Of a DNA stretch of 64,000 nt, positions 2,496 through 52,489 are shown one piece after another; position 1 is the stretch's first letter; each line of letters begins with the position of its first letter. The translations under genes and the position numbers were made by a program. Below the pieces are notes generated by a model. The model was not told the DNA's origin. It saw nothing but the letters and a program-made list of their open reading frames with translations, and ran no database searches. The stretch is from Chiloscyllium plagiosum (lineage: Eukaryota). The DNA lies in NCBI RefSeq assembly GCF_004010195.1, contig NC_057718.1, forward strand, positions 57,365,023 through 57,429,022, read 5' to 3'.

Positions 2496-2715
2496 GAGAG
2501 AAAGTGAGGGCTGCAGATGCTGGAGATCAGAGCTGAAAATGTGTTGCTGGAAAAGCGCAGCAGGTCAGGCAGCATCCAAGGAACAGGAGAATCGACATTT
2601 CGGGCGTAAGTCCTTCTTCAGCCCTCCTGAAGAAGGGCTTATGCCCGAAACGTCGATTCTCCTGTTCCTTGGATGCTGCCTGACCTGCTGCGCTTTTCCA
2701 GCAACACATTTTCAG
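2496..2715. mobile_element. Penelope-derived fold-back mini-element with hammerhead cores on both strands
   Basis: 91-nt arms at 2531-2621 and 2627-2717 (3 mismatches); 15-bp TSD cttggctattcttca at 2481-2495 and 2716-2730; same sequence as the termini of the PLE at 50717-52444. Confidence 0.85.
2627..2654 (+). ncRNA. Minimal hammerhead ribozyme core (PLE type)
   Basis: CTGAAGA-A-GGGC-ttat-GCCC-GAAA-CGTC. Confidence 0.7.
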
Positions 2716-3052
2716 CTTGGCTATTCTTCATCCAGCCTCTACTGTACTACAATATTAATGTTCAAATAGCTCTTACAATTAGAATATGCATACGGCCTGT
2801 AGATGCAAATTTATTGAAACACTGATACACATGGATCATATGGCCTGCAGTTAACTCCTTGAGTGAGAATGGTTCCACCAATTTGAACAGACATTTCAAT
2901 GACCTCTGCATCGAGTCCTTGTTGAAGATTTTAAATATAACATTGTATCACATTTTCTACTATGTTAAATTTTGCTCGATAAATTGTGGGCTTTATTGAT
3001 CACAAGCATAGAGAATTTAGCTCTCTATATAATAAATACATGCAGATCATAC

Positions 3053-3110
3053 CTCTCAACAGTTCTTCTGTTTCAAGTCTGATTTTATTAATGGCATCAT
3101 CTCTTGAAAC
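3053..3110 (-). CDS. PNPT1: PNPT1 exon 11
   Basis: aag|[19 protein letters not shown]|gtatga. Confidence 0.95.
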
Positions 3111-6100: not shown

Positions 6101-9100
6101 CAGTGTGGAAACAGGCCCTTTGGCTCAACAAGTCCACACCGACCCTCCGAAGAGCAACCCACCCACCTCTGACTAATGCACCTAACACTATGGGCAATTT
6201 AACATGACCAATTCACCTGACCTGCACATCTTTGGACTGTGGAGGAAACCGGAGCACTCAAAGGAAACCCACGCAGACACGGGGAGAATGTGCAAACTCC
6301 ACACAGACAGTTACCAGAGGCTGGAATCGAACCTGGAACTTTGGTGCTGTGAGGCAGCAATGCTAATCACTGAGACAGCGTGCCGTACCTAGTCATGGGA
6401 AATGCAAGGTTACAGGGATGGGGGAGCTGGGTTTGGGTGGGATGCTCTTCCATGTGTCAATTTGGATTTGATGGACCAAGTGGCCTGTTTCCACACTGTA
6501 CAATGCTATTAAATGAGGAAATTGAGTTAAGGCTACAAGGTGCCTTTCCACTGATTTATCTCTATTTCTTTTCTTCGTAGAAAGAATCACCCCGAAAAAC
6601 GTCAGGAGATCTGGAATTTATCATGCACAGTAAAAAGGCAATGAACTTCTGCACACTCTACAACACATGATATTTGAGCGTAAATCTTCTGCACAGATTA
6701 GCACCATTATTATAATGTGGTCTAGCAACCTTTCATGTGCATTATCCTTGTAATTAAAAGTCTTTCCTTGCTTAATGTATGCAACTTTAGAAACAAACAC
6801 AAACTGATTCATTAATATTAAATAAATGGACTGTGATACATTTTATACTTGTTACAAAAACATTAAATACCATAAAATGCAGCCGCACATCCCTGATGAA
6901 GCTTTTGGACTTTCAAAATAGAATAGTTAATATTAAAGCTGTTAGTAAACATGACAGTGTGTAAATATTTTACTGCATAAACATATTTTTGAATTGGCAG
7001 GGAACAGCTGATGAGTGAAGATCAAATCCTCACCAACTTGGCTATGAGGTCCACCAGCCAGTACCATGTTTAAAGTACTTAATGCCATCTCTTTTCGAGT
7101 TGGGTTAATCACAACTTCGCCATCCACAAGGCCAACCCTTACAGCACCTGAAAGGGGAATGCAGAATAGAGTGAGTGTCATTTTTAAACAACTGTTGTTG
7201 TTAGGCAGAAAGCAATACGATCCTGAAGGCATAGTATTGATGAAAAGTACAAGGCAGTAAATATTGCAGAGAACGCATACTAGCTTGTGGAAACAATAAC
7301 ACTTTCAGCTATATCAGTAGCTTATAGTTGGCTTATTGACAGATCTTTCTCACACAGGAACTTAAAGTCTAAATGCAGAGAGTCATAAAAGCAGCAGAGA
7401 ATGTCATTTGGCCTATTGAGTCCATGACTCTGTAGAGTAATCGGGGTCTCATTCTGTAATAACTACATTCATGTAACCCTGTAAGTTTATTTTTCTCAAA
7501 TGTCTATTCCATTTCTTTTTGGAATCATTCATAAGCTCCACTTCCATCACCTTTGTTGGCAGTCAATTCCAGGTCATTATCAATCATAAAACAAAGAGTG
7601 GAGGATGCTGGACATCTGAAACAAACACAATGAGAAATTGCTGGAGAAACTGAGCAGGTCTGGTGCCTTTTCTCTCCACAAGTACTACCATATCTGCTTA
7701 GTTTCTCCACCAACTTGTTTTTTTTTTGTTTCACTTCTCCCTATTTCTTCTGCCAAAGTGCACCACTTTACACTTTCCCTGCATAAACCTCAATCTGTCA
7801 ATCCATGGACTTTCTGTCCACTCCAGTTGATTAATATTTTCTTCACTGACTGTCACACTTCTAATTTGGCATCAATGGAAAACTTTGAAATTTTACTCTG
7901 TATTCCAATATCCAGCTTATTTAACGCATGTACTATCCTTTTTGCCATCCCCCAAACTGACACAGATCAGCCTCAATTTTGTTAAGTAGACTTTTGTAGT
8001 ACTTTGCTCAAACATTTTCTTAAAAATGTGTATGTACAGATCACTCATTTATAAACACGCACACCTACCAGTTTCCTCATCATCAACCTTTGTTACTTCG
8101 AAAATTAATTAGTCGAGCATGTTTTCCAATTTACAAAATCCATGCTGAATCAACTTTGACCTCTCCAAGTGCCTGTTGAGAGATTTTCTCTCACAATTAT
8201 CACTTCTAAAATCCTACTCACCATTTATGCCAGAATTCACTATTTATGCACCCTTTTTAATTGTCTCAGCCAATTTTCTATCTGGCCATGAAAAAGGGCT
8301 CTCGATTTGATACATTTACTTTTCACGCTTGTTCAAAGAAACTATGCTGCACCTGAACAATGCCTTCCTTACCACTCCCCAGTATCAGACCCAGCATTCT
8401 TATTTGAACCAAGTACATATTTCTCCAGAAAGTTCTCCTGAATACATTGAGAATAACATTATTCAAATTGTAATTTGGGTAATTAAAGTCCCTCCAATAT
8501 CAATTTTCTGCCTTCTCATACAAATCTGCAATCTCCCTGCTGATGTGTTCCTTTCAGTCTGTGTCTCTCACTAATTTGCTCTATTTGAAGGCTACAAAAT
8601 ACTTCCAATAGAGAGTGAACATACCATTTTTGCTTCTCAGCACTAACCAAATGGATTCTGTCCTTTGCCCTTCAAGGCCATTGGCTATTTGCCCCATGAC
8701 AATATCTTCCAAACCAATACTGCCACCCCACCTACCATTTTAACTTCAATACTTTTTATGAACTTTGATCCTTGAATACGAAGCTCCCAATATTCACCAT
8801 ATTAAGATTCTGTTAGTGCTACACATTCCATTTCCATGCAAATACTTGTCTGTGCTCACTTCTGCACCACACTTGGTGCATTTACATACATACACTGCAA
8901 ACCTATCTTTGCATTCCTTGTAGCTCTCCTTATTCTGCTTCAAAAACATTACTTTCTTCTCTAGTCCATTATGTACCATAATCTTCTTATCTGCTTCTAT
9001 ATTTTGGTGCTCCTCTCCTTGACCCTCTTTAACAACATATGTAAACTGTTGCATGAGGGCATTGGCCCCCTGTTGGTTGAAATGCAAGTATACTTTTCAA

Positions 9101-12100: not shown

Positions 12101-15100
12101 AAAATCTGCTTATCTTAATTCTTAAAATACTAAAATTGCTTCATCACCTCCTATAAAAGGCTCAAAACTATTAAACTTTTTACCTCCCTCAGTCTTTCCC
12201 TCTTCCTACAACCTTTAGGTTGGCAGCCCTTAATGACTTCTTCCTGCTTTATCTCATCTTCTGTCTTACATCTTGGTAGTATCCTGCACTGTGGGCCTCG
12301 GCCCTTTATCTAGATTTCTTAATATAAATAAAAAGGAATGTAAAAGGTGGGAAAACAATTAAATAATTAAAAAATACAAGCTGAGTAGTACAATTATACT
12401 TTTTTCTATTTAGGGACACTGGGATGAATCTTGTTTAAATATGCAAGAGTGCCAAGTTAGCTTCACAGCATAGAAGCAAATTGCTTTGACCAATAGATCT
12501 GTGGCTAGTGTTTATACTCTACACAAGCCTCCTTCCACTTTATTTTGTCTCACCCTAACATACTTCTATGCTTCTATTCCTCTTGTTTCATGCACTTATC
12601 TAGCTTCCACTTAAATGCACCCAAGCTATTCACCTCAAATCACCCCATGTAGCAGCAAGTTTGATATCCTCACCATTGTACTAGTCTATACCAAGGTCGC
12701 AGGTTTTACAGGTTCACAGAACAAAGTTTCATAGAGATGTACAGCACGGAAACAGACCCTCATCCTCGATAACAAGAACTATGTATTGCTGATACTGCAG
12801 TTAAGTGTTGAAGATGTTTTCTTTAAAATCTCCTTTGTCAAGGAGCAATTTGAAATAACACGTTGCAAGGAATTGTGTGTGACTTGGAGATGATGTTTCA
12901 ATAATACTGCTAGTCGTCTCTGTAAGACCATAAGGAATAGGTGCAGGAGTAGGCCAATCGGCCCTTTGAGCCCACTCTGCCATTCAATAAGATTATGGCT
13001 GATCTTTTCATGGTCTCAGTTTCACTTACCTCTCACTATAACCCTTAAATTCCTTTACTGTACAAAAAAAAAATCTATCTTAGCTTTAAAAACATTCCAT
13101 GAGGAAGTCTCAACTACTTCATTTGGCATGGAATTCCACAGATTCATAACCATCTTCCTTGATAATAGATTCAAGCATTTTCCCCATTACAGAAGTAGAC
13201 CTGTAGATTCACCATAACCCCTTCACTACAACTGGGTCAAAATTCTGGAAATCCTTTCTCAATATCATCATGGTCCATCCCCAAAGTAATCAATAACAAG
13301 GTATGTTGTTTACGTACCTCCATTTATTGCAAGTACATCAGGATCATTGACACCATCCACTGCGATGAGGTTACAAACAATCTTAAACAAATGAAAGAAT
13401 CATACCTTCAGTCTAAAACCTGGATTATAAATATTTCTGCAAACAAATGTGGCATGTGGATGTAAGTTTGCTCGTTGAGCTGGGAGGCTACATCATCAGG
13501 AAATTACACCACCAACCCAAGGAAACCTAAACACAAATAAAAAGTGGGCCATACTACCAGTGCTTCACCGGAGGCTAACTGATGATGTTACCTAGTATGG
13601 TGATGAAACATTTGAAAACGAACCTTCCAGCTCAGCAAGCAAACTTACATTCAGAGTAACCTGAGCTACAAATCTTCTCAAAACTTGCTAAATGTGATAC
13701 GTTTTGATCATCAATAGCAGGCTATTCCAAAGAGGCTGCAAAAAGGGGGGAGAAGATGAAATATGACAGTATGCTAGCTACTAATATAAAAAGATGATTG
13801 CAAGAGATTTCTTAGATATGCAAAAAAGGTAAGAGAGCGCCACAAGTCGACATTGGACAAATGGAAAATGAAGCTAGAGAAGTAGAAATAAGGAACAAAG
13901 AAACGGTGGAGAAATTGAGTAGATCCTATGCATCTGTATTCATAGTGGAAGACATCAACAGCATACAAAAACTTCCAGAGTATCAGGGGGGCAGAGGGGA
14001 GTGTAGTGGTCATCACTAAGGAGAAGGTGCTGGGGAGGCTGAAGGATCTGAAGGTGGATAAAACACACAGACAAAATGAACTACATGCCAGAATTCTCAA
14101 GGAGATAGCTGAAGAGATTGTAGAGACATTTGATGGTGACCTTTCAGGAATCACTGGAGTCAGGGAGGTCTCCAGAGAACTGTAAAATGGTTGATGTAGC
14201 ACTCTTGTTTAAGAAAAGGAGGGAGACAGAAGACTATAGGCTGGTTAGCCTGACCTTGGTTATTGGTTATTTTAGAATCCATTATTAAAGACAGGATTGT
14301 GGAGTGCTTGGAAGTACATGGTAACAGTGCTAAGCCAGCATGGCTTTATCAAGGGTGGTTATTTCTGATAAATCTGTTATAATTCTTTGAGGAGACAATG
14401 AGCAAGTTAAACAAAGGAAGCCAGTGAATGTGATCTATTTGAATTTCCAGAAGGTCTTTACCAAGATGCCGCGCAAGAGACTGCCAAATATGATATGGGT
14501 CCATGGTGTTAGGGGTGAGGAACTGGCATGGATAGAGTAATGGTTGACTGGTAGAAGGCAGAGACTAAGTATAAAAGGGTCTTTTTCAGGATGGCAGCCA
14601 GTGATTAGCAGAGTTCCAAAGGGGTCTGTATTGCACCAGAACAATTCAAGTTGTGAAGATCTAGATGAAGGAACTGTGGGCATTATTGCTAAGTTTGCAG
14701 ATGACACAAAGGTAGTTGGAGGGACAGGCAGTGTTGAGGAAGCAGGAAGGCTACAGAAGGGCTTGAGACAGGCTGGGAAAGTGGGCGAAGTGGTAGATGG
14801 AATACAATGTGAGAACGTGTGAGGTCATGCACTTTGACAGGAAGACGACAGGATAGACTATTTTCTAAATGGGGGAAGGCTTCAGAAATCCGAAGCATAA
14901 AGGGTCTTGGAAATCCTTGTTCAAGATTCTCTTAAGGTTAACATGCAGGTTCAGTTGGCAGTTAGGGAGGCGAATGGAATGTTAGCATTCATTTCAAGAG
15001 GGCTAGAATACAACAGCAGAGATGCACTGCTTAGGTTGTATAAGGTTCTGGTCAGACTCCTTTTGAAACATTGTGAGCAGTTTTGGGCCCTGTACCTAAG

Positions 15101-18100
15101 GAAGGATTTGCTGGCTTTGAAGGGAGTCCAGACGAGGTTCAGGATGAAGGACGTGCCGAATAAGGAGTTGTGGAGGACTCTTGCTCTGTACTCAGAGGTT
15201 AGAAGGATGAGATGGGCTCTGGCAAAATTACAATGCTGAGAGGCCTGGACAGAGTGGTATGTAGAAATGTTTCCATTATTTTGAGAGTCTGAACCCAATA
15301 ACAACCTCAGAATGAAGGGATGACCCTTTAGAACTTAGATAAGGAGAAATTTCTTCAGCCAGAAGGTGATGGATCTGTGGAACTTGTTGCTGCAAAAGAT
15401 AGGGTCTTGATTGTTCAGGGGATCAAGGGCTACAGGGATAAGGCAAGATAATGGGGTTGAGAAACATATTAGCTAGGATCCAATGGCAAAACAAGTTCAA
15501 TGGATTTAATTCTGCACCCAAACCTTGTGGACTACATACTTTTAGAAACACTCTAAAAGTCAAATAAATTATTAATATGATACTAACAGCCATGTTAAAA
15601 ATTAACTACATTACAAATTAACATTGACTATTTAAAATTAATACAATTTATTACAATTATATGAACAATGAACAAGAAACAACATTGTAACAATAAGCAA
15701 AATAACTACAGGAGCTTCACATACAATTGTGCAGCTATTAAAGTTTCATTGACGTTCATTGTTCCAGTCACGATTTTAAAATAATATAAATTTTGCTTAC
15801 AGCATTTACAGCTTGTTTAAATATAGATATTTCAACCAAAGCAATTAGGCAAAATACAAATTTGGCAAATGTGTTCAAAGTAGCATTTTCCAAAATGTCT
15901 CAGTTGTTAATTTTATCCATTATTTACCTGTGTATCATAAAAGTAGCCTGAAGGAAACAATGGCCTGATCGAACGGTCTGAAGAAGCAACAGAAAACAAA
16001 TAATTTACAATGCTGAACACATTTACAATTATGAAAGCCTTGGAAAACAAGCCTATATTTTCATCATGTGCCTGCCTTTCCAAGCCTTTTTGGTTTACCT
16101 TCTGAATTTGAAATGTAAACTGCTTTCTCTCCACAGATGCTACTAGATATGCTGAGTTTCTCCAGCTCACTGTTATTGCATGGTTTTCCTTCAACTTGAC
16201 AAATGGGGAAACATTGTCTGAACTGGGCCAAAGACTTCAAGAAATGTGGTATTAAGTGCTACTCTGGATTTGCTGATCAGAGGCACCTTTCAACTACTCT
16301 CCATGCTTACTACTTATGTTTCTCTTTGTTAAAATACCAACTAGGAACAAAAATGCTAATGCACTGAGGACAACTAACTGTTTGCTGGCCAGAAGTAGTA
16401 ATTCTCATTGGGTCAATGGATTCACAAACAAGGGTAATTACCTTTCAAACCAGGCATTTTTATAATTCAATCCAAATACTTTTAACATGTTCCATAAAAT
16501 GCATGGACCACATTTCAGCCAAACAACATCATGTAACATTTTAAAATATTTCTACTCGTAAAGTAAAGCTTCTGTAGATATTAGAAATGGAAACAAGTCA
16601 AAATACTTTACTAGAAAATATTCATCCTTACGGTCAAGGGATGGCAAAATATAAAATTGTTGCTGCAAGTACCATAAGCTATTTTTAGAAATGAATCTGA
16701 AAAAAAATTGCACAATAAGCCTATTCTGCATTAGATGATCTTACCAATTATTCTGCTGGTCAAAATCTCATTATCTGTGTAGCCCATTTCTCTTCGTAAA
16801 TAGGTTGTTGGTATTCTTCCTGCAGCAGCAGCTTTTTGACGGTAATCAACCTATTAAGAAAAGTCTGTTAGTCTCCAGCAGATTCTACAATATCAACCAG
16901 ATATTAAATGTTAAGAAAAACTTACCACCAATGGCATAAATTGAGATGCAGTAGGCTTTGTCTTGCTGACAGCTGTAACCATCACTGATGTCTCTCCTAA
17001 CTTCATGATGAGAAAACTAAAGTTAGCAGTTTAAAATCCAAAAGGCTTTTTTCCAAATGATCAACTCAGCAAACAAATATTAACATATTCACATTAGTTT
17101 ACATTTTTTTCACAATTCTACTGTGAATCATTTACAGTTTTCTTATCCTTCAATACTCTACTTCAAAATGGCTGTTCCTTATGATCAGACAGCTGAGTTC
17201 ATAGTTGGGCAAGCTGATACAATACTATTCATCAATCAGCTCAGCAGAGTGTTTTAATGAAATTCATTTCCAGCAGAGCAAGGAATTAACCTTAAGGCTG
17301 CACACTGACCCAAGGGTGTTGCAATCGACTGTATATTTCATTCTGACAACAATAGAGGAGGTGCTTAATGCAAGGTTTTTGATAGTTCACTGAAGAAACT
17401 TTGAGGGATCATTGAAGAGACCATATCAGGAGTTCTACAGTTAGATGTATTGCTTGGAAAGCAGCTGAACTACATAGCCCCACGTAGAGTGCTGACTTAG
17501 GAGTTATGAAAAGCTCAATGGTTCTGTGTGTTTAGAACCCTGGGGAACAAATTCTAGGAATTAATAAAGAGCCAAATTTTGGACTCAGAAGTATTCCCAG
17601 GGAGCTGAGTAAGTGGGAAAGTCACTGGCTCTGTACAACAGGAAGCTGAGATGCACTGGGCAGAAGTCTATGAGCATTAATATTTCACTGCAACTGAGAG
17701 TAAGAATTGAAAAGCTTAGAACAGTATTTGTTTGAAGAAATGGGACAAGATTAGAACCTGGGGTGGGTGGTGCACAGGTTTAACACTGGATCATTGAATC
17801 TAGCTTTTAGTGAATAGCTCACATTCTGCTTGTGAACAACTATTAGAGTGCAGTTTTGGAACCTGATCGGCTATAAGTGGGCAGCATGGTGGATCAGTGG
17901 TTAGCACTGCTGCCTCACAGCGCCAGCGACCCGGGTTCAAGCCCAGCCTTGGGCGACTGTCTGTGTGGAGTTTGCACATTCTCCCAGTGTTTGTGTGGGT
18001 TTTCTCCCACAGTCCAAAGATGAGCAGGTTAGGAGAATTGGTCATGCTAAATTGCCCATAGAGTTAGGTGCATTAGTCAGGGGTAAACATGGGGAATGGG

Positions 18101-21100: not shown

Positions 21101-24100
21101 GATTGATGCAATATATTGGATTCAACTTTTATCTAGTTTCTACATCCATAATTTAATGATTTTTAAAAAAAAAACGTTCTCTTATAGTACCTAAATAAGT
21201 AACATCTACTTTGATTTTGGAGTTTTCCCACATCAAGAGATACATGAACCGGACAAAGCTTGTTTCTTTCTGGGACAAATAGCTAGTTTATAACCTGAGT
21301 TCCACATCAAACATGGCTGATCAAAGAGATTTTCATGCACTAACAGTCTGCCACAGATTTATGGGGAAACTTTGATCATGTTGCTCACATGTACTTTCCA
21401 AGACCACCAATGTATGGAGTGGTACTTGAACATGGAGCTTCTAGTTCAGAGTACAAGATATACCTACTGTGCCACAGGATCACCAAATCATACTGAAATT
21501 TCAATGCCTCAATTCCCTACTGGTTAGGGGCAAGTCAGTCAAACTCTATACAGACATCCTAAAAAATAGTTTACCTGCACCAAAGCACATCCATCTGCAA
21601 ATCTGGCAAGCTTCCCTGTGGAGATTTCAAGCTTTCTATCGAAACAAAGAAATGAAACATCGTAAGTAAAACAATATTTCTCTTTAGTATATTACAATCT
21701 TATTTGGGATATCATAATGTTTAGGATAATAATTTGTCATGGGAACTTCTCACTCATCTTTATTAAACAAAACAATTATAGGAATAAATCTATCAATCAA
21801 CTTAAATGATAGTTTTAAAATACACCATTAATTGATAAAATCAAAATGCAAAAGCTAGCTTCTAAAATCCTACCACCAATTTTCATTTGGTTCTTTTAAA
21901 GACAAAAGGCCTTGCTACAGACAAGAAGGTGGGCAAGAGACCTGCTGTCTTGTCTCCAGAACTATCCACAAACCGTTGCATTTTCAAGACAGAAAACAAC
22001 ACAACTGCCAACTGTAGGTGGGAATCATGCACGTTCTTCCTCAACACTCCCTTGAGCACAAATTGAGAATGAAAACTCAATTTGAGAAACACGAATACAA
22101 ACCCATTTCCTATTTTAGCAAGTATTTGGGCATTGAATCAATTCTCAAATTTATTTTCCAACTGTTAAGTCCAGCAAAATTGTCTAGTTGTCCTGGGCCA
22201 TTAAACAATGTTCCTTCAACTAAAATGTCTCATTTCATTGTCTAAAATCAGAAATCAACACCTTCAAGAATATAACTGGTGTTATCGCGCCAAATAAGCT
22301 AACCTTGTTATATATACTTAGTGCAGGAACATTGGTTCATGTTGGGCTTGGTCGGCCTTCCAGTTTGTAGACTCAATTTCCAATCTATGTCATGGGATAA
22401 GAATTAGAACAGGAATGTAAATACTCACACCCATTCCAAAATAAAAACATTGCTTGTTACAGCACTCCAACTACTTCCTAGATTTAGGACAATGACTGTT
22501 AGAAGACAAGTGGGCTGCATTGTCCTTAATGGAGTTGAACTGCTTGAATGTTATTGGAGCTGCATTCATCCTATTGAGTAAGGAGCTTTCAGTTACACTT
22601 CAGATTTATGCCTTGTAAACTGTTGACAGGTTTTGGGGAATTAGGTGGTGAGTTAATCATCACAAAACTTCTAGCTTTTACTGCTATGGCATTAATATGG
22701 CTGGTCCATACTAGAGTAAGGTAATGGCGTTGAATGTCAAGGCGGATAGGTTTTCTTCTTTGGAAACTTGTGAGAAAAATTTACTTGAAATTTATTAACC
22801 TGAGGCTGTACTTTGGCCAGGGCTTACAGACTATGAACTCAGACTACTTTGCCTGAGGAGCTGTGAATAGCATTGAACACTGCAATTATCACTGAGTATC
22901 CCCACTTTATTGATCTTATACATCTCTATAAATGAGCATCTACGGTGAGCATTGCTCTTGATGTGGTTTCCTCTACACTGGGGAGACAGGATACCAACTT
23001 GGGGAATGTTTCGGAGAACATCTTCGGGACACACATACACGAAACAACCCCACAGCCCTGAGGCCGAACACTTTAACTCCCCTCCCACTCCGCCAAGGAC
23101 ATGCAAGTCCTGGGCCTCCTCCACCTCCATACCCTAGCCACCTAACACCTGGAGGAAGAACGCCTCATCTTTCACCTTGGGACCCTCCAACCACACAGGA
23201 TCAATGTTGATTTCACTAGTTTCTTCAATATCTCTCCTTGCACCTTTATTCCATATCCAACTCGGCACTGCCCTCTTGAACTGTCCTATTTGTCCATCTT
23301 CTTTCCCACCTATCTGCTCCACCCTCCTCTCCAAACTTTCACCCTCACCCTCCACCTTCATCTACCTACCAGCTATCTTCCTCTGAGCCCCACATACCAC
23401 CCACCCTTATTTATCTCTCAGTCCCCTTGGGCCATCAGCCCATTCCTGATGAAGAGCTCATGCTCGAAACAGCAACTCTCCAGCTCCTCGGACGCTGCCT
23501 GACCGGCTGTGCTTTTCCAGCACCACACATTTTGACTCTGATTTCCAGCATCTGTAGTCCTGACTTTCTCCTAGTTGATTTCTAAGGGCTGTTGAGATTC
23601 AACTACATTGATATTAGTTTGAAATCACGAACGCCAGATTAGCTGAAGGTAGTGCCTTTAATTAAATAGACAGATGCATTGATCATGTTATCAACAATCC
23701 AGTTTATTGTGGGAAAGGAATTCCTGTCTCCTGATTATTAATTCAGATCTCTGGATTACTAGATGAATAGTGTGACCACTTGCAATTGCTCCTTGTCATG
23801 AACTGAACTACTGAAAGTGAAAAAGCTTCTGAGGATAGTATTATCTTCCCTGAGTGAAGTCAAATATGGCCTCATCTCCATTTCTTCTTCATATCAGGAC
23901 CAGTAATCTTTTGCTCTTTAATACTTTCCCTAAACGTAGGTTACATTCACACTGTAGAATCATTACGAGTCCATTCTGACACCACATACAATACAAGTGG
24001 CAGCTCAAAGCTGAGTTAGCACAGAACTAAATGTGGTGAAGCAATCTGGAGGAGGGAGTTTTACTCCCAACTCACTCCAGAAGCAATGTGGGCTACACAC

Positions 24101-32522: not shown

Positions 32523-32712
32523 GATAGTTCCAAATCAGAATGGTGTGTCGGTTGGATGGAAACTACTAGGTGGGTGTGCTTCCGTGCTTTTGCTGCTTCT
32601 GCTTTTCTAGGTGGTCAAAGTCACAGGTTTGGAAGGTGCTATTGAAGAGCCTTGTAAATGTTACAAATGTCTGCCAGCTGTGGAGGGAGTGATAGATGGG
32701 ATACTAATCAAG

Positions 32713-33247: not shown

Positions 33248-34610
33248 TTTGAGGAGAAAGTGAGGACTGCAGATGCTGGAGATCAGAGCTGAAAATGTGT
33301 TGCTGGAAAAGCACAGCAGGTCAGGCAGCATCCAAAGAGCAGGAGAATCGACGTTTCGGGCATGAGCCCTTCTTCAGGAATGAGGAAAGTGTGCCCAGCA
33401 GGCTAAATAAAAGGTAGGGAGGAGGGACTTGGGGGAGGGGTGCTGGAAATGTGATAGGTGGAAGGAGGTTAAGGTGAGGGTGATAGGCTGGAGTGGGGAT
33501 GGGGGCGGAGAGGTCAGGAAGAAGATTGCAGGTTAGGAAAGTGGTGCTGAGTTCGAGGGTTGGCCTGCTGGGCACACTTTCCTCATTCCTGAAGAAGGGC
33601 TCATGCCCGAAACGTCGATTCTCCTGCTCCTTGGATGCTGCCTGACCTGCTGTGCTTTTCCAGCAACACATTTTCAGCTNNNNNNNNNNNNNNNNNNNNN
33701 NNNNNNNNNNNNNNNNNNNNNNNNNNNNNNNNNNNNNNNNNNNNNNNNNNNNNNNNNNNNNNNNNNNNNNNNNNNNNNNNNNNNNNNNNNNNNNNNNNNN
33801 NNNNNNNNNNNNNNNNNNNNNNNNNNNNNNNNNNNNNNNNNNNNNNNNNNNNNNNNNNNNNNNNNNNNNNNNNNNNNNNNNNNNNNNNNNNNNNNNNNNN
33901 NNNNNNNNNNNNNNNNNNNNNNNNNNNNNNNNNNNNNNNNNNNNNNNNNNNNNNNNNNNNNNNNNNNNNNNNNNNNNNNNNNNNNNNNNNNNNNNNNNNN
34001 NNNNNNNNNNNNNNNNNNNNNNNNNNNNNNNNNNNNNNNNNNNNNNNNNNNNNNNNNNNNNNNNNNNNNNNNNNNNNNNNNNNNNNNNNNNNNNNNNNNN
34101 NNNNNNNNNNNNNNNNNNNNNNNNNNNNNNNNNNNNNNNNNNNNNNNNNNNNNNNNNNNNNNNNNNNNNNNNNNNNNNNNNNNNNNNNNNNNNNNNNNNN
34201 NNNNNNNNNNNNNNNNNNNNNNNNNNNNNNNNNNNNNNNNNNNNNNNNNNNNNNNNNNNNNNNNNNNNNNNNNNNNNNNNNNNNNNNNNNNNNNNNNNNN
34301 NNNNNNNNNNNNNNNNNNNNNNNNNNNNNNNNNNNNNNNNNNCCCTCGAACTCAGCACCGCCTTCCTAACCTGCAATCTTCTTCCTGACCTCTCCGCCCC
34401 CACCCCCACTCCCGCCTATCACCCTCACCTTGACCTCCTTCCACCTATCACATTTCCAACGCCCCTCCCCCAAGTCCCTCCTCCCTACCTTTTATTTAGC
34501 CTGCTGGGCACACTTTCCTCATTCCTGAAGAAGGGCTTATGCCCGAAACGTCGATTCTCCTGTTCCTTGGATGCTGCCTGACCTGCTGTGCTTTTCCAGC
34601 AACACATTTT
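33248..34610. mobile_element. Penelope-derived inverted element spanning the assembly gap; three intact hammerhead cores
   Basis: Cores at 33350-33377(-), 33589-33616(+) and 34525-34552(+); TSD catacatgttacttatc at 33231-33247 and 34611-34627. Confidence 0.8.
33680..34342. other. Assembly gap (663 N)
   Basis: Run of N. Confidence 1.
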
Positions 34611-36017
34611 CATACATGTTACTTATCAGTCCAACCCTGAATGTTGCCTAAATTTTGCAGCATATGGTCACAGGCAGCTTTGGTATCTGAAGAGTCATGA
34701 ATGGTGCTAAACATTGTGCAGTCAACAGCAGACATCCCCGTTTCTGACCTTACGATGGAAAAAAGGTAATTGTTGAAACAACTGAAGATGGCTGGGCCTA
34801 GGACACTGTCTAGAAAAGCTTCTGCAATGATGTCCGGGACTGAAAGCAATGATCTCCAATAATCACAATCCTACACCAACCTCTTTTGTGTTAGGTTTGA
34901 ATCCAACCATTGGAGAGTAACCTCTTTTCCCCCTCCTTCCATTCCTGTTGATTAATTTTTCTAGGGCTCCTTGAAGCCATACTCGGTGAAGTGCTGCCTT
35001 GATATCAAGGGCAGTCACCCTCACTTTACATCTGGAGGTCAGTTCTTTCGTCCATGTTTAGACAAAGGCTTTAATGAGATCAAGAGCTTAGTCACTCTGT
35101 GGAACCCAAACTCATGTCATCTGAAAAGTAATGAAACAAAAATGAAAATTAATAGAATGACAGAATGAATATCAGAGAAGTGAAAAAGTAATAAGAAACA
35201 GGATTAAATATTGATTTGGAAGCAAACAGTATTTAATATAAAACTTCTGACTGCTCATTGTTAACTTTAAATATGTTTCTCACATGAAAATCCAATGACC
35301 ACTGGGAATGTTCACTTCCATCTGCCAAATTTACTTTCTGCTTTTGTAGCAATGCACCGTGCAAGAAGATTGGCTGCTTTCTATACTTTTTGCTTTTGAT
35401 CATCTTTTTCAGCAATGTGTTCTACCCCAATGTGGAAAATGTCAAATATCAATGCTATCCCAATCTGTTAAAAACAGCATTTCATTGGTACATTTAAAAG
35501 AAAATATCAATGTGTTCCCTAGGAACTTGTCAAGTTGCAGGTTTCATTAAATCTTTCTTTCCTAACTAGTTCTGCTGTTCACCACCCCGCTCCAGCCCAC
35601 ATTTCTGTTACTCTTAAATTCCACAAGATGGCACTGTTATAACATTTTATTAGTTCAAAAGTTGAACACAACACAATTAAGACACAATTTATCAGATCGT
35701 GAGTTAGAAAACAGAGTACAAATAGATTTCTAAAATATTTTTGGACTCAATTGGTTGCCAAGAAAATATATTAAAAACTACTAATGTTGGAAATTACATC
35801 CATTATGACTATGACTAAGGCAAGTTTCCCTCACCTTTTATCAACTTTTCTCCAGCCTTTGACACAGTTGATTACACCAACCTCATCCAACACCTTTACA
35901 CTGGGAGGCTGCAAATGCCTCTATTTTAATTGTAGCCCAAGAATCACCAGCAATGTATTCTGTTTTCACTTCCACACATTCACTTCTGGTGTTCTCCAAA
36001 AATTTGGTGTTCCAAAT

Positions 36018-36130: not shown

Positions 36131-38779
36131 TCAACTAATACCTTACTTTGAAAATGCTCATCCTTGTTTCCATATCCATCCGAGACTTGACCCTACCATT
36201 TCTCTAGTCTGTTCCAGTATAATAGACATTCCAGATACTAACGCAGCTTTAATTCTTGAACATTCCTGATTTTAACTGGTCCACCACTGTTCCATCATTT
36301 CAGTTGCTGAGGTCCTAAATACTGGAATTCCCTCCATAAACCTTTCAATTCTCTACATCATGTTTTCCTCCTGTAGGGGATTCCTTAAAATCTAAAACCT
36401 ACCCCTTTCAATAAGCTTTTTGTTATCTGCACTAACATCTTATTCGGGGGCTTTGTGTATATTTTGTTTAATATCACTTCTGTGAAGGGCCATCCATTGC
36501 TTTCTAAGGCAGAGAGTTCCAAGGTCATAGACCTCGTTGAGAGTAAAAAAAAAATCACCTCTACCCTAAATGGGCAAATCCTAAATTCTAAATAGTATGC
36601 CATAATCTTAGGCTCACCTACAAGAGGAAACATCCTTTCCACATCCACCAGGTCAAGACTGTTCAAGACCTTATCTTGGGTTGAACCTCCACAATCCAGC
36701 AGTCTTGAGACTGGCAACTGCTGTGGTTCATCACCCTCCGTACTTCCAGTTTTCTGAAGATCCCACAGTGCTTCTGCTTTTTTTTTAAGAGGATGCATTT
36801 TACACTACAGAAGAGAACATTTTTGAGAATTTAAATGCTGTAAAGGCAGTTAGAAGCATAACAAGCAGAGTTCCTGACATGTAACTACTGTAAAGGGAGC
36901 TCCCAGTATTTAAGAACTGAAAAGGAATTTCAAAGAGCAGCAGGCAAGCATTCCAGCAGTTAACTACTGATAGGCAGTTTAATAAGCAATGGGAGTTCAC
37001 AGCTATGGATCACCTGAAAACTTTCTCTGTCATAAGATCAGATGTGGTAATGTTCGCTGATGGTTGCACAATGTTCAGCACTATTTAGGACTCCACAGAT
37101 TCTGAAGCAGTCCATGTTCAAATGCAACAAGATCTGGACGATAGACTTTGGCTAACAAATGGTAAGTAATATTTGCAGAACACAAATGCCACAGGAATGA
37201 CCATCTCCGATAAGAGACACCTAATCACTGCCCTTTGGTAAAGCCATTGAATATCACTGAACCCTGCACTACCAAAATCCTGGGGTTTCGATTGACCTGA
37301 CTTAACTGGACTTCCGTCAGACACAGTAGCTACAACAGCAGGTGAGGGGTCAGGGACACTGTAGCTAGTAACTCACCTCTTGATTTCCCAAAGTCTATTC
37401 ACCATCTACAAGGCATCAGGGACAAGGAGTGTGATGGAATACTCCCCACTTGCATGGATGGGTACAGCTCCACCAACACTTAAGCGGCTTGATACCGCCC
37501 AGGACAAATTGGGTGCTTGATTGGTACCATGTCCACAAGCATCCATTACTGCATGTCTACTTTCTACAAGATGCACTTCAGAAATTTATCAAAGATCCTT
37601 CAACAACACCTTCCAAACACACAAAGACTTCATCAGGAAGGACAAGGGCAGCAAATACATGGAAACACCATCACCTGCAAGTTCCCCTCAAAGTCACTCG
37701 CCATCCCGACTTGGAAAATATTGTCTTTCCTTCACTGCTGAGTCAAAATCCTGGAATTACCTCCTTAAAGGCATTTTGGGACTACCTACAGCATATGGAC
37801 TAGAGCGGTTCAAGAAAGCAGCTCATTACCAGCTTCTCAAGGGCAACGAGGGACAGGAATAAATGCCCACGTCCCACGAGTGAAAACAAAACACATTTTA
37901 AAGAGTAGACAGCAAGCGAGAATTCCCATGATTTAACACCTGTCACAGTTCCTGGTATTTAACCATTTAACTGTTTGAAATGGCATCAGAGAAAACAATG
38001 CAGTGGAAATGCATCGCTATCTGTACAGCAAAAGATTGAATTATTGAAAAAATTAGAAATGTATACATTGGTACAGGCCTGTTTCAGGCTTTCAATCACA
38101 CGCTGTGGTCTTCCACAGTGTGTGATTGAAAGATGAAAAAGGATAATATCTTTAGCAAACAAAAACAGAAATCACTCAAGAAACTCAGCAGGTTTAGCAA
38201 AATCTATGGAAAGAAAGCAGAGTTGATGTTTTGAGTCTGGTGATTCTTTATCAGAACTGTTAGTAACTAGGAAAAAGTGATATTTATGCTGAAGCCGAAA
38301 TGGGGAGGGTGGGGGTGGTAGGGGAGGTGAGCAGATAATTGGACTTGGTGCTGAGAGAGAGAGAGAGACTTGAAAGGCGTAGGTAAACAAGGTGGTTATG
38401 GATAACAGGCCAGGACAGAAGAGAAGCTGAGTTGAAAAAAACAGAAGAGGTCAAATCTGTATATAAAATACAATATAAACTTCTTTAAAGAAAGACCAAA
38501 ATACTTGAGACTAGCCCACTGTAAGATTGTTTCAGGGTGATTCCTCACCAGCCCCCTAAAGCTGACCGTGATGTACAACAATCCCATGGATGAATAGCTT
38601 ATCAAGGGTCATACTAGAAGTCCTTTGTATGTGTAGTGACTTCAGGTTATTAGAAGAAATGGGAGTGGAGAAAGAAATGGTTTAAAAACTCTGACATGTG
38701 ACTTCCCTTTCTCTGGTTTGGCAAAGGCCCGATCCTGAGCTGTAAAATAGAAGTACAACCTGGAGCAGCATCAAGTCAA

Positions 38780-43800: not shown

Positions 43801-44555
43801 AATCTAATTAGATCCTCCCATTTTCATTCCTGTTTGAACTGGAATATGATGTTCAATTGTCCCATTATTGCAATATTAGCTAACTGAATAACAGGTGATT
43901 CAATTTGTGAATTATCTATGTCTCTTTCTGCCTCGCTCTCATTTTCTATGGTATCCTCCACTATTCCTTCTTCCTGACATTCTTGCTCCTTCTTACCTTC
44001 TTCCAATGGGCTATCATTTCATCTTTTTGAAATGGCAAAACTGACTCCTTTTCCTGTGATCTGGAGTATTTATCAGATAAATTCACTACTAACTTTGTTA
44101 ATTACATTGTATGGATCAATGAAACTTATTTTTCAAGTTTGTCCCTGTAAAAGTAACAATACTAATATTTCATTCCCTTTTTGTAATGTTCTGGTTTCAG
44201 CATGTTTATCTGACCATCCTTTCATCTTTGCCTGTGGAGTTTCTTTAATGCTCCCATGCTACTTTGAAGATTCTATCCAGCATTTCTAATCACATGGCCA
44301 TTAATTAAACCTAATAGATTAATTTGGTAAGTCTCTGGTAGCAAAAACAGAAAATCCAGACCTTTGTTCCTATTGTATAGATATTCTTGACCATTTACTT
44401 TAATCATTATCTTGAGACAATGACAATGCCTCTCTAAAGGTCCCTTTGTCTGTGGATGATACACTGTGTATTCAGTTCTTATGCCCAGGTTACATATTGT
44501 GTCTTAAAAAATTGTGCCTGAAATTGGAATCTTAATCTGGCTGTTTCTATTGGTA

Positions 44556-44815
44556 GGCGAAAGTGAGGACTGCAGATGCTGGAGATCAGAGTCAAGATTA
44601 GAGTGGTGCTGGAAAAGCACAGCAGGTCAGGCAGCATCCGAGGAGCAGGAAAATCAGGCAAAAGCCCTTCATCAGGAATGGTGCTGTACGGTGGCTCAGT
44701 GGTTATCACTGCTGTCTCACAGTGCCAGGGATCTGGGTCCAATTCCATCCGTGGGTGACTGTCTGTGTGGAGCTTACACGTTCTGACTGCGTCTGTGTGG
44801 GTTTTCTTTGGGTGC
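44556..44815. mobile_element. Penelope terminal fragment plus V-SINE head nested in the Gypsy integrase
   Basis: aaagtgaggactgcagatgctggag...cccttcatcaggaat followed by cggtggctcagtggttatc. Confidence 0.75.
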
Positions 44816-45271
44816 AAGACTGATTAATCCAGCTTCTCTTTGGATTTCTCAAATACCCATCAGATTATTCTCTCCATATTAACATGTTTCTATTGGTAGC
44901 CTATAATGAAGAAAAAGTAAAGTTGATTTTTCCACTATTACTTGAACTGTGATTGTCCTCAAAGGGATGGCTTTTGGGAACTGTGTTGTCATATCTATAA
45001 TAGTTAAGATATACTGGGTCTCCTGCTTTTCGTTTTTAGTAATGGTCTCTGCAGTCTACTTACACCCTATTAGACAGTTCCTCCAAACTGATACAAATAT
45101 TATAAGTACTGGTTTGGTTATATGTTTTGGTTTTCCCACCGATTGGCATGTCTTGCCTGTTTCAGAAACCTGCACTGTGTCTTTGTGAACATCAGTAAAA
45201 GTGTCTGTTCATTGATGCTTGAGTTTTCTGCACTTCTGCATATTCTGCCAAATGACACCCTCCAGTTTCCT

Positions 45272-45593
45272 CAGATTTCTCCAGTTTCCTCATTTCCCAT
45301 CCCCACATCTTGTCTCAGTCCCAACCCTCGAACTCAGCACCACCTTCCTAACCTGCAATCTTCTTCCTGACCTCTCCGCCCCCACTCCCACTCCGGCCTA
45401 TCACCCTCACCTTAACCTCCTTCCACCTGTCGCATTTCCAACGCCCCTCCCCCAAGTCCCTCCTCCCTACCTTTTATCTTAGCCTGCTTGGCACATTCTC
45501 CTCATTCCTGAAGAAGGGCTCATGCCTGAAATGTCGATTTTCCTGCTCCTTGGATGCTGCCTGACCTGCGCTTTTCCAGCAACACATTTTCAG
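45272..45593 (+). mobile_element. Penelope terminal repeat with hammerhead core (45508), inserted at the Gypsy protease
   Basis: Near-identical to 34343-34610. Confidence 0.8.
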
Positions 45594-46670
45594 CCCTGTC
45601 TCCCTGAATACAGTTATGGGTTTAACTGTAGCTTTGAGGAACAATGGATTGCTTTTCCTATTGACAAGAATCATTTAAATTTCTCATTTATCTTATTCAT
45701 CTCTCCTGCACTCCCCAGCAGTGTTGTTCTTTAGTCTCCCAGTTATAGTTAAAGCTACAATTGGAGTCTTTGTATTTTCATTCTGCAATACTTTTTCCGA
45801 GTAGCTCTTATGAAGCAGTAAATCCCGATTTTCCACATAACTTCCAACCTCCTGAAAGAATGTGTTGCACTTTGTTACAAAGTCAACTCTAGGTCTTTGA
45901 TTTTCACTCAGCACCTTCCTTTCTGGCCTAAGAGGGATTTCTGAAGGCATTCCGAGCTGTCCCTTCCTTTTACTCTCCCACCTTACCTCCTTCTCAGTTC
46001 TATGGTATAACAGAACAAAGCTCTAATTTTATGGATCAACTGATAGTTATCAGCCATCTCTGCTGCCTAATTAACTTCAGCATGAATTGTCATGACTGGA
46101 GGAAGAGAAGTTTTAATTTCTTTTAACGAAAATAATTTCTCTGAGATCTACATATGTGACATTTACTTCTAATGCCCTTCTCCAATGGTCAAAATTACTT
46201 TTCTTTAACCTTTAAAAAACAGTCTAGGTTAAGCAAATCTGTTTCATTATGATTCAAAACTTTTGCCTGCATGCTTCAGGAACTAACTTATACTCACAAA
46301 GAATAGCCTTTTGTATTGCACCATGATCCGTAGAAACCCCTTCTGAAAGTGTTGCATCTACTTGTCAACGTCTATGCATGAGCAGTGCTCAGTTTTGTTA
46401 CCTCCTCAAATGAAATGAAGAATACCTCCAAGTCCTTTTCCTTAAATTTTGGTAGGTCTTGTAACATTTAAACATCTGAGACTTTGGGTTAAGGTAGAAC
46501 TTTTCTCTGCATTTCAGCTTTTGTTCTTTAACTGTAAAGCAGTATTCTCTTTTTGATTCCCTCTCTTCATTCTTTGCACTCTCTTGAAATTCTAGTTCCA
46601 GTCTCCCATGTTCCACTTCACTCTCATGTGCTTGTTCTTGTTCTCCTTCAAGTTCAAGATTTAAAATAAA

Positions 46671-49063: not shown

Positions 49064-49516
49064 TATATCGTTTAGTTATGTCAACTATTGTGATGCACTG
49101 TATCTCCATCAAAGTCAGGGTAATGGTGACCACATTACAACCCTCCCTTATAACTCATGCCCTTCAATGCTCTATCCTCTTCCATTCTTAAGTGCTGAAT
49201 TGGCCCTCTCCCCCACCCTTTACAATTATTGTCACTTCAACATCCCAGAATTCTATTCCTACAAATTCCACAACTTGCCCACCACAGTAGTTGCCTTTGA
49301 TTATGCCCTTGACTTTCACTGAATAAACCCTCAGGATTGACCATGGTTGATTTGAAACAATAGACCTGACTGAGAACTGAACAGATCACCGACTGAGTTT
49401 GTGCAGCTCTCTGAGTTATTGCTAATCTCTGAATTGGTTGGACTTGACCTGGACATTGACTGTTGCCCAATCTCTGGACTGAAACTATACAGAATCCCTG
49501 TCCACTCCAAGTATCT

Positions 49517-49602
49517 CCTGTATTCCTGATGAAGGGCTTTTGCCCGAAACGTCGGGCTCCTCGGATGCTGCCTGAACTGCTGTGCTCTTCCAGCACCACT
49601 AA
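49517..49602 (+). mobile_element. 86-bp Penelope-derived insertion with an intact hammerhead core
   Basis: CTGATGA-A-GGGC-tttt-GCCC-GAAA-CGTC at 49526-49553; TSD tccactccaagtatct at 49501-49516 and 49603-49618. Confidence 0.8.
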
Positions 49603-50716
49603 TCCACTCCAAGTATCTGACAGGGCATGTCCAAGCCTCTGAACTAAGATCAGGCAGTGCCTTTAATGGACTGGTGGGACCGACAGACTGACAACATGAG
49701 TTGATGGAGGACTGCTCCCCTTAGACATTGGGGCATAGTAATTTGGTTGAAGCACATGCAGTGTGTTTGCCGAATAAACTGCTGGAACAGGCTGCAGTTG
49801 TGACATGATGTAGCAAGGTGCCCTATAGCAACATGTCCACCCACTTTTCTATGTCGACACCCATGACAAGATGCCTAGCTTTGTGCTTGCCCTAAAAAAC
49901 AAGGCGAAACAGAAGCACAGTGAGCCTCTAGATCTGAATAATGCCACAATATGCAAAAAGGGAAAGCAAGACAAGGCAGTGATGCTGTGAATATCCAAGT
50001 AGGTGTGAAAAGATTGAGCACTTTGATAACAAACTAATAACCCTGAGATTCACCTTGTTCCAATGTATGTGGTAGGTGCTTGCCCCTGTATGCAGAATGG
50101 CTTGCAGCAATATTGCAGTGAGGTCCATTGTGCAGTTTGAAGTAGTCAACATTATTATAAGTGAATGCCACGTAGATGTAGAATGGTTAGTGTGTGTCCG
50201 ATGCCAATCACGTACCATCAAAAGACCACCATGGCAGTCAAGAGACTGTGTGGACTTCCTGTCTCGAGGTGATTCCTCACAGGGCATTAGGGACTTAAGA
50301 AAGACTGTGATGTTTGAACTTTCAGCTTTATTTCTTTGTTCTTCAACTTAAAACTAAGAAGGTCTGTGATATGTAACTTTTAACCTTACTTCATATGTTT
50401 TACATTATACTATAATTACTGCAATGTTTAACTTTTAACTTTGTTCTAAATAATACTGTACCTAGGTACTTGTACCTAAGATGGCGCCTTGTGTAGCGAC
50501 ATTATACACTTTTCATTGTACTCCTGTATTTTTGTACTTGAGTACATGTGACAATAAAATCAAAATCACCTTAGATGAAGAATGCAGGCAGTTGCTGCCC
50601 ATGGAACATGCTCTAAGATGTTGGGGAATGCTGGTGAAGATGAAAGCCTGAAGACTCAAGTGGTGAGCTGCAGACAGCAGGTACCTGCTCAGACTTTTGT
50701 ATTGAGAATTATTGAT

Positions 50717-52444
50717 TCGGAGAAAGTGAAGACTGCAGATGTTGGAGATGGCATCAAGAGTGTAGTGCTGAAAAGGCGCAGCAGGTCAGGCAGCATCCGA
50801 GGAGCAGGAGAATCGACGTTTTGGGCAAGAGCCCTTCATCAGGAATGAGGCTTGTGAGCCGAGGGCGTAGAGAGATAAATGGGGTTGGGGGGAAGGTAGA
50901 TAGATAGATGGAGGTGGGGGTAATGGCGATAGGCTAGAGAGGATTGTGGAGAAGGTAGGTGGGAAGGAAGATGGACAGGTCGGACTGTTCATGAGGGCGG
51001 TGCTGAGTTGGAACGTTGGAACTAAGATAAGGCGAGAGAAGGAAATGGGGAAACTAGTGAAGTCCACATTGATGCCATGTGATTGGAGTGTCATAAGACG
51101 GAAGATGAGGCGTTCTTCCTCCTGGCGTCGGGTGGTTAGGGTGTGGCAGTAGAGGAGGCTTCAACACTTGGCGGAGTTGAAGTGTTCGGCCACAGGCCGG
51201 TGGGGTTGGTTGGAGATATTCTTTTGAAGTGCTCTGCAAGTAGGCGTCCTGTCTCCCCAACGTAGAGGAGACTGCATCGGGAGCAACAGATACAGTAAGT
51301 GACGTGTGGAAGTGCAGGTGAAACATTGGATGTGGAAGGCTCTTTTGGGGCTTTGGATGGAGGTGACAGGGGAGGTGTGGGCACAGGTTTTGCAATTCCT
51401 GCGGTGGCAAGGGAAGGTGCTGCGAGGGGAGGGTGAGTTGGTGGGGAGCATGGACTTGGCAAGGGAATCGCGGAAGGAATGGTCTTTATGGAAAGCGGAT
51501 AGAGGAGGGAAATATATCTCTGGTGGTGGGGTCTGTTTGTAGGTGGCAAAAATGGCAGAGCATGATGCGTTGTATACGGAGGTTGGTGGGGTGGAAGGTG
51601 AGGACCAGGGGGGTTCTGTCCATGTTGCAGTTGGAAGGGTGGGGTTTGAGGGCGGAGGTGCGGAAATTGGATGAGATGAGCTGGAGGGCATCATCGACCA
51701 CATGGTAGATTGTGGTCTTTGAAGAAGAAGGCCATGTGGTGTGTTCTATGGTGGAACTGGTCTTACTGGGAGCAGATGCGGCGGTGGTGGAGGAACTGGG
51801 AATAAGTGATAGTGTTTTTACAAGAGACAGGTTGGGAGGAGGTGTAGTCGAAATAGCTGTGGGAGTCGGTGGGTTTGTAGAAGATGTCTGTGTTGAGTCA
51901 GTCACCATTAGTGGAGATGGAGAGGTCCAGGAAAGGGAAGGGAGGAGTCTGAGATGGTCCAGGTGAACTTTAGGTCGAGGTAAAATGTGTGGGTGAAGTT
52001 GATGAACTGTTCAACCTCCTTGTGGGAGCACGAAGTGGCCCTGATGCAGTTATCAATGTAGCGGAGGAAAAGGTGGGGAATGGTGCCAGTGTAACTGTGG
52101 AAGATGGACTGTTCCACATAACTGACAAAGAGACAGGCATAGCTGGGGTCCATGTGGGTGCCCATAGCTACCCCTTTCATCTGGAGGAAGTGGGAGGATT
52201 CAAAGGCGAAATTATTGAGGGTGACAGTCCATCACCGACCTATCACCATTACCCCCACCTCCTATCACACTCTCAGCTACCCTCCCCTCCCAGTCCCACC
52301 TCCCCCCCCCTCCCATTTATCTTTCTACCCCTTCGCTCACAAGCCTAATTTCTGATGAAGGACTCTTGCCCAAAACGTCGATTCTCCTGCTACTCGGATG
52401 CTGCCTGACCTGCTGTGCCTCTCTAGCACCACACGTTGGACTGG
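50717..52444 (-). mobile_element. Penelope-like retroelement (RT and GIY-YIG), 5'-truncated, with an inverted pseudo-LTR
   Basis: KGVAMGTHMDPSYACLF...FLRYIDNC (RT); YCICCSRCSLLYVGETGRLLAEHF (GIY-YIG); inverted terminal copy at about 52225-52440; TSD gaattattgat at 50706-50716 and 52445-52455. Confidence 0.92.
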
Positions 52445-52489
52445 GAATTATTGATGCCTAGTTTCTCTCACTGCCTAGAAAAATAGCAA

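Follow-up and report, generated by a model that had tools for sequence, protein, structure and literature searches.

We analysed a stretch of 64,000 nucleotides of the shark Chiloscyllium plagiosum (contig NC_057718.1, positions 57,365,023 to 57,429,022; the window), in which short units carrying hammerhead ribozyme motifs recur on both strands. These units are probably pieces of a shark Neptune-type Penelope-like element (PLE) that are bounded by target-site duplications (TSDs), truncated at the 5' end and often inverted head to head, each made anew by internal priming of the reverse transcriptase (RT) and run-off upstream of the hammerhead. That such stubs are a by-product rather than a self-copying family is, in our judgement, highly likely. 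The pattern is real and mostly explained by known PLE integration.

Arms, target-site duplications and 3' ends

We number positions from the C of CTGA (hammerhead C3) as +1, so that predicted cleavage falls after +28. An exact search of the window with the pattern CTGAWGA-N5-30-GAAAC gave nine matches against 0.81 expected, and none of 100 shuffles reached nine. Eight of them coincide with sites listed in an earlier, sequence-only reading of this DNA, and the ninth (13579) lies in a different repeat family. All 12 hammerhead positions of that reading are present in the sequence, intact or decayed. The whole core through GTC is retained in six (2627, 30593, 33589, 34525, 49526 and, on the minus strand, 33377), and the decayed motifs end in GTT (32789), have lost GTC (23446), carry a broken ACGT palindrome (45508 and 2621, minus strand) or have G12 changed to A (52352 and 50842, minus strand). 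BLAST, alignment and an nhmmer scan of the window defined 15 hammerhead-region arms in nine loci (nine in 63 kb, about 140 per Mb), comprising eight A-type, four B-type and three older arms; the three nhmmer hits beyond these arms, out of 18, are weak older relatives. Scans with the motif DNA pattern found no locus in viral contigs and none in metagenome contigs, and nine single matches in named bacterial genomes are taken as chance.

Exact TSDs of 10–17 bp flank seven of the nine loci, and an exact match of at least 10 bp occurred in 0.3% of 1944 random zone pairs. Six TSD-bounded, independent insertions had been proposed before, and their duplications of 15, 10, 11, 17, 16 and 11 bp are all exact; likewise borne out are four small non-coding units, measuring 220, 173, 197 and 85 bp, three of which are fold-backs. 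A wider search zone revealed a seventh, previously overlooked insertion (44555–44884) with a 15-bp TSD. The TSD search at 22938–23572 and 45274–45594 found none.

The 3' ends of the arms fall at two places approximately 35–45 nt apart. Seven of 15 end at the tail (+121 to +126), seven at +82 to +96 and one at an assembly gap. All five TSD insertions with two arms combine an outer end at one of these places with an outer end at the other, and each consists of an inverted, 5'-truncated copy with a one-sided tail of 30–40 nt. Published PLE insertions show this very arrangement, a head-to-head inverted copy whose tail is one-sided. An adjacent inverted 5'-truncated copy has been described for PLEs (PMC8557442; PMC3846280), and the Poseidon protein of Anolis, which nicks and extends both target strands, begins reverse transcription within the RNA at two sites that delimit the tail (PMC11167929). 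Since PLE integration itself is known to yield both fixed 3' ends and an inverted arm (PMC11167929; PMC8557442; PMC4209133), these lend no support to a distinct family.

The same ends are found outside the window. We aligned contigs of four public runs (approximately 116,000, 130,000, 144,000 and 12,000 records) to 33200–33565; three runs are DNA-type and the other, X16, is RNA by guess only, and contigs cannot show a transcript start. Loose contig ends lie at +126/+125 and +86/+82 in all four runs, with unrelated flanks (agreement 0.33–0.45). The commonest strand-changing joints listed connect 33251–33254 with 33292–33303, that is, a tail end with a tail-less end of the opposite strand. These tail-to-tail joints comprise up to 36 contigs each among those listed and have no host DNA between the two ends; such junctions were not seen in the window.

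The sequence-only reading had proposed a distinct non-autonomous, retrozyme-like family. Differing junctions, the rejection of a clade of short arms and the lack of any tandem array of units in the window all speak against it. The fold-back junctions differ from locus to locus, the partner arms starting at +1, +18 and about +16, and the contig joints vary too (among those listed, −3 with +45, −3 with +31 and −13 with +19). A tree of 14 arms over 93 columns, from which the left arm at 30510 was omitted as too short, rejects the seven short arms as one clade (p-AU 0.0003) and also the three A-type short arms, a group named after the distances had been seen (p-AU 0.012). In both distances and tree, the A-type short arms nest among long copies; for instance, arm 2625–2717 differs from the long arm at 34343 at one of 82 sites and from the mini arm at 30589 at five of 82. 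Hence neither the short arms as a whole nor the A-type short arms form a lineage apart from the long copies. As for fixed boundaries of the minis, the single-arm unit has shared ends, with its two 3' sites and five of 14 arms at one 5' end, and the fold-back as a whole has none. The breakpoints are not all unique, as they would be for merely abortive truncations in the sequence-only reading, because two sites account for the 3' ends and a single one for many of the 5' ends. The B-type arms group together weakly (support 74/78), and a self-propagating B-type mini subfamily is still conceivable. Protein searches for long B copies with hammerhead-spanning peptides returned 0, 1 and 6 matches, three of the six looking like repetitive chance, and were uninformative.

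The shared 5' boundary and its explanations

Of the 14 arms whose 5' end is defined, five begin at −5 to −2 (ends read by eye); they come from five loci and represent two subfamilies. Under geometric truncation, the probability of five in 14 is 0.049, 0.005, 0.0005 and 0.00005 for mean lengths of 40, 80, 150 and 300 nt, respectively. The 5' truncation of PLEs has been described as variable (PMC8557442; PMC3846280). Among the public-run contigs, at least 38 from X16 end loosely at −3, some fold-back joints have −3 as one of their sides, and rare head-to-tail joints connect −5 or −1 with the two 3' sites. A further trace of the boundary comes from an annotated protein, C. plagiosum FOPNL isoform X3 (P0050), whose last residues correspond to the antisense tail followed by a sense arm from about −6 to −3. 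This isoform end is possibly an exonised PLE fold-back stub, in which case stubs can supply host exons.

We consider it somewhat likely that the shared boundary is caused by an RNA 5' end. In A and C copies the heptamer TCATTCC has its central A at −4; we take it to be initiator-like, and such heptamers have a background rate of 1.2% per base. The Penelope element of Drosophila virilis uses an internal promoter, with a start inside its pseudo-long terminal repeat (pLTR) and an intron at 416–491 (PMC2377424), and the end of the 5' intron is where its hammerhead starts (PMC4209133).

In the mechanism that we favour, the transcript would start at the A of TCATTCC (−4). The RT would prime at the tail about 130 nt downstream, as priming at two internal sites is known from Anolis Poseidon, and the resulting short cDNA would reach the 5' end of its template. 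Two cDNAs, one per target strand, would then be joined head to head, one of them trimmed, and longer copies would require a template jump or a tandem read-through RNA. Most stubs are presumably dead because they end at or before the tail. Snap-back self-priming, although still conceivable, fits less well than two priming events, given that no clear matching homology is seen at the junctions and that the partner arm ends where the second priming site lies. None of the 14 arms starts at +29, which led us to reject run-off at the cleavage site.

Several observations weigh against this mechanism. The initiator consensus is loose, and the same bases form hammerhead helix I. Nine of the 14 arms start elsewhere (+1, +16, +18, −27, −115, −186, −232, −510 and −1389), and the −3/−4 edge is absent from the six loose-end places listed per run in the three DNA-type runs. 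Arms that share an insertion are not independent, the truncation null model is simple, and the 93-column tree has one well-supported branch. All four B-type arms (three loci) are short, and the window lacks a long B partner. What the RNA must contain is known from Poseidon, a different clade (PMC11167929), and the D. virilis transcript starts about 120 nt upstream of the hammerhead, against the 4 nt proposed here. Summed contig depth from hammerhead to tail exceeds that upstream 6.9–8.8-fold in the three DNA-type runs and 81-fold in X16, but we did not use this ratio as evidence because contig depth cannot rank parts and the upstream sequence diverges between subfamilies.

The main alternative to an RNA 5' end is a structural stop, at which the RT, copying a long RNA in ordinary 5' truncation, stalls at the hammerhead fold or at a protein-bound site. 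This would explain why eight of 14 ends fall within −5 to +18, around the hammerhead, and why the ends of two partner arms, at +16 and +18, lie within helix II, and the Anolis ribozyme is indeed protein-assisted (PMC11167929). The peak, however, lies on the far (5') side, where helix II has already been passed by the RT, and little stable pairing is added upstream of −4, helix I consisting of three weak pairs. Moreover, a SINE (short interspersed nuclear element) fragment joined to one stub also stops at an RNA 5' end, although this is one case. On balance we regard a structural hotspot as unlikely. Similarly doubtful is a non-autonomous mini family of the SINE kind, whose unit would span about 130 nt between −4 and the tail, carry its own internal promoter, be transcribed from stub copies and be re-inserted in trans by PLE protein. 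Common 5' and 3' ends would follow directly from such a family, which is most plausible for the B type, whose four weakly grouped arms are all short; non-autonomous PLEs occur in Chlamydomonas (PMC8557442), and trans-mobilisation via pLTR sequences has been reported in Adineta vaga (PMC3846280). It sits badly with fold-back junctions that all differ and with A-type stubs nested among long copies. In addition, the Anolis enzyme needs sequence 3' of the tail on its template, which the stubs lack (PMC11167929).

In a retrozyme-type cycle, the hammerheads would cleave as dimers, and monomers would circularise and be copied into the genome. The motif at 33350–33381 (minus strand; predicted cleavage after 33350) has a short helix I, a CUGAAGA core, an unpaired A, a 4-bp helix II, GAAA and an ACGU palindrome. 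The features of the minimal PLE hammerhead (CUGANGA, extra base, G10.1-C11.1, GAAA, palindromic ACGU and NUH) are thus all found, as the sequence-only reading had maintained, together with derivation from a PLE and dependence on an RT/GIY-YIG partner. The 6-bp helix I and loop-loop contact of a canonical type I hammerhead are lacking. Helix II is paired at 96% over the 15 arms, with one compensatory change, but covariation, a check that had been suggested, does not rise above that of shuffles (90/500). Comparison with the Rfam hammerhead models, also suggested, gave no match for the window at E ≤ 1 nor for one arm at E ≤ 10; in Rfam, the window gave two weak microRNA-hairpin matches and the arm two irrelevant weak ones.

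For such a cycle speak the intact core in six of the 12 motifs, the compensatory change in helix II and rare head-to-tail joints, which among those listed comprise 4, 2 and 4 contigs in three runs for a 132-nt unit and four contigs in one run for an 87-nt unit. Three of the four internal deletions of at least 7 nt in the 15 arms also bracket the cleavage site (44555, 49522 and the left arm 30510; P 0.006–0.02 under random placement, post hoc). Against it stand the minimal motif, the missing tandem array and the lack of any arm end, 5' or 3', at +28/29. For fold-back RNAs, the predicted structures are near-perfect hairpins (−77 to −185 kcal/mol) that would bury the ribozyme core, and the active dimer is predicted at −9.3 kcal/mol against −21.9 kcal/mol for a competing dimer; dimer cleavage of PLE hammerheads has been reported as weak (PMC4209133; PMC6765202). 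We find the retrozyme cycle very improbable. If the three deletions do reflect cleavage, they would be a footprint of ribozyme activity in vivo. A reasonable alternative is that a CpG palindrome underwent ordinary deletion; short microhomologies occur at two of the three deletions, and in the public-run contigs no indel reaches 1% of depth at this site.

The favoured mechanism of internal priming and run-off can be extended, tentatively, to the full PLE cycle. The stubs might record a replication intermediate, namely an RNA that starts four bases upstream of the hammerhead and yields a strong-stop-like cDNA, longer copies arising by template jumps. Failed jumps would leave stubs, jumps back to the priming sites tandem 132-nt proto-retrozymes, and jumps across cleaved RNA the cleavage-site deletions, and foreign RNA could be captured in the same manner. 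A possible example of the last point is 44555–44884, where one 15-bp TSD encloses a stub and a SINE fragment joined head to head at the −4 end. The fragment begins at 44681 with the natural 5' end of the SINE and lacks the SINE 3' part. As judged from this single chimera, the structure fits priming on a foreign RNA with run-off at its 5' end, and a SINE transcript was possibly captured by the PLE enzyme.

Parent element and published systems

The window contains one long relative of the stubs. Frameshifted pieces in 50719–52231 (minus strand) run from the RT core through GIY-YIG, collinear with the shark proteins P0001 and P0004. A protein search with the RT fragment 51908–52228 (minus strand) identified 49 relatives among 75 candidates, which are shark and ray proteins with 46–81% identity, the named ones from Chiloscyllium, Rhincodon, Stegostoma, Hypanus and Mobula. 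Relatives P0004 and P0006 contain RVT_1 and GIY-YIG, partly below the Pfam cut-offs; a Pfam search of the window PLE pieces by themselves gave no match, and a related-locus search with P0004 found nothing in three sequence collections. RT followed by a C-terminal GIY-YIG domain in one open reading frame (ORF), as found here, characterises endonuclease-bearing PLEs. The linker in 51164–51745 (minus strand), aligned to P0004, contains C-x4-C-x2-C, and a CX2-5CxxC zinc-finger-like linker between RT and endonuclease marks Neptune and Nematis PLEs (PMC8557442). From this linker and the vertebrate host we provisionally assign the parent to Neptune-type PLEs.

The sequence-only reading had suggested mobilisation by this RT/GIY-YIG element. 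Dependence on such a partner stands, and what falls is the role of the copy 50719–52231 itself, which cannot mobilise anything because it is frameshifted, 5'-truncated and a member of an older subfamily. Judging by its sequence, it is a relative of the mobiliser rather than the mobiliser. In two old copies the endonuclease frame stays open through a pyrimidine-rich tract and the hammerhead (50786–51160, minus strand, and 23146–23502, plus strand), both ending at the same stop at about +55, and the unnamed protein P0056 shows a similar read-through of the hammerhead region. The ribozyme may lie within coding sequence.

The shark units resemble insertion units of endonuclease-bearing PLEs (Craig et al., 2021, PMC8557442; Arkhipova et al., 2013, PMC3846280) in the head-to-head inverted arm, one-sided tail, 10–17 bp TSDs, order of RT and GIY-YIG and hammerhead near the 3' end. 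They differ in that about half of the shark arms are at most 130 nt long and five share one 5' boundary. With the Poseidon element of Anolis carolinensis (PAc; Frangieh et al., 2024, PMC11167929) they share the use of both strands, the lack of ends at the cleavage site and two 3' end positions that match two internal RT starts downstream of the hammerhead. In that system uncleaved RNA is used, cleavage is not needed, and the RNA template has to include the initial 172 nt of the ORF (PMC11167929). Unlike PAc, the shark element has the Neptune-type CxxxxCxxC linker, and the window copies have no long ORF from helix II but an endonuclease frame open through the hammerhead instead. The motif resembles minimal hammerheads of metazoan PLEs (Cervera and de la Pena, 2014, PMC4209133) in its core, the extra base between 9 and 10.1, G10.1-C11.1, the palindromic 15.2–16.2 and a short helix I, whereas its helix II has only 4 bp; no shark is named in the portions consulted of that source. 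It already reported hammerhead pairs on opposite strands, 100–700 bp from each other, and scattered solitary motifs as probable truncated PLEs.

Non-LTR retrozymes (Cervera and de la Pena, 2020, PMC7229834; Li et al., 2026, bioRxiv 10.64898/2026.07.22.740005) are likewise non-coding, derived from the PLE pLTR and hammerhead-bearing, and have been reported in one chondrichthyan genome. They are defined by head-to-tail tandem repeats that give circular RNA, whereas the shark units are dispersed, single or inverted, and tandem joints are rare (2–4 contigs per run, among those listed). Our literature search, whose scope did not extend to Dfam, Repbase and the supplements of Li et al. on chondrichthyan retrozyme families, turned up neither a report of this shark family nor one of a fixed 5' boundary.

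Truncated and inverted PLE ends with minimal hammerheads are thus already published, and as a family claim the observation is ordinary. Its value lies in what the copies may record. Two questions stand open in the portions consulted of PMC2377424, PMC4209133 and PMC11167929, the regeneration of the pLTR after internal priming and hammerhead cleavage in vivo. At the window's density of about 140 loci per Mb, the junctions in a shark genome would suffice to approach both by counting.

Individual loci and neighbouring repeats

The A-type fold-back insertion 2481–2730, with TSDs at 2481–2495 and 2716–2730 (15 bp), pairs a tail-bearing arm starting at +1 (2498–2621, minus strand) with a tail-less arm starting at −2 (2625–2717, plus strand). 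In the second A-type fold-back (30504–30695; 10-bp TSD), the tail-bearing arm (30510–30588, minus strand) starts at +18 and has a 30-nt deletion across the cleavage site, and the tail-less arm (30589–30682, plus strand) starts at −4. The B-type fold-back 32702–32913 (11-bp TSD) is composed of a tail-less arm starting at about +16 (32709–32785, minus strand) and a tail-bearing arm starting at −3/−4 (32786–32905, plus strand).

Two insertions contain further B-type stubs. In the chimeric insertion 44542–44899 (15-bp TSD), the tail-bearing stub (44555–44680, minus strand) starts at −4/−5 and has an 8-nt deletion abutting the cleavage site; its head-to-head partner is the SINE fragment on the plus strand, which runs from its 5' end at 44681 to about 44815 and is followed by about 70 unique bases. 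The single-stub insertion 49501–49618 (plus strand; 16-bp TSD) holds a tail-less stub (49522–49606) that starts at −4 after a 5-nt filler and has a 7-nt deletion just 3' of the cleavage site.

Of the longer loci, the A-type copy 45274–45594 (plus strand), for which no TSD was found, is 5'-truncated, starts at about −232 and is tail-less. The older 5'-truncated copy 22938–23572 (plus strand), also without an identified TSD, retains a GIY-YIG fragment, the decayed hammerhead at 23446 and the tail. The older C-type PLE 50706–52455 (minus strand; 11-bp TSD) consists of the main piece 50719–52231 (minus strand), with the frameshifted RT core, thumb, CxxxxCxxC linker, GIY-YIG piece and tail, and an inverted, tail-less arm starting at about −115 (52232–52437, plus strand). 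The complex A-type insertion 33231–34627 (17-bp TSD) has three arms and a 663-base assembly gap (33680–34342). Its tail-bearing arm (33252–33563, minus strand) starts at −186, and the plus-strand arms are 33560–33679, starting at about −27, and 34343–34612, which is tail-less. Arms within this one TSD differ at the diagnostic sites +14 and +39, which suggests that a single insertion drew on more than one template RNA or that haplotypes are mixed on the two sides of the gap. Splice-acceptor-like pyrimidine tracts ending in AG lie at 23562–23575, just past a tail end, and at about 33405–33415 (minus strand), about 27 nt upstream of the hammerhead, where the arm at 33560 starts.

The window is rich in pieces of SINEs and long interspersed nuclear elements. 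An RNase_PH_C domain match within 6945–7304 (minus strand) marks an exon (6942–7304) of a polynucleotide phosphorylase-like host gene, presumably PNPT1, and the window appears to lie in the introns of this gene. Diverged older kin of the same 3' region occur at 7600–7720, 16110–16170 and 38170–38300, for which clear TSDs were not found; they include a decayed hairpin at 7637–7714 and a decayed hammerhead-like stretch at 38178–38258 (minus strand). The fold-back at 13463–13690 belongs to another repeat family and bears its own decayed minimal hammerhead at 13579–13612, with a longer helix II and a possible 7-bp TSD; it probably represents a second PLE lineage that inserts in the same manner.

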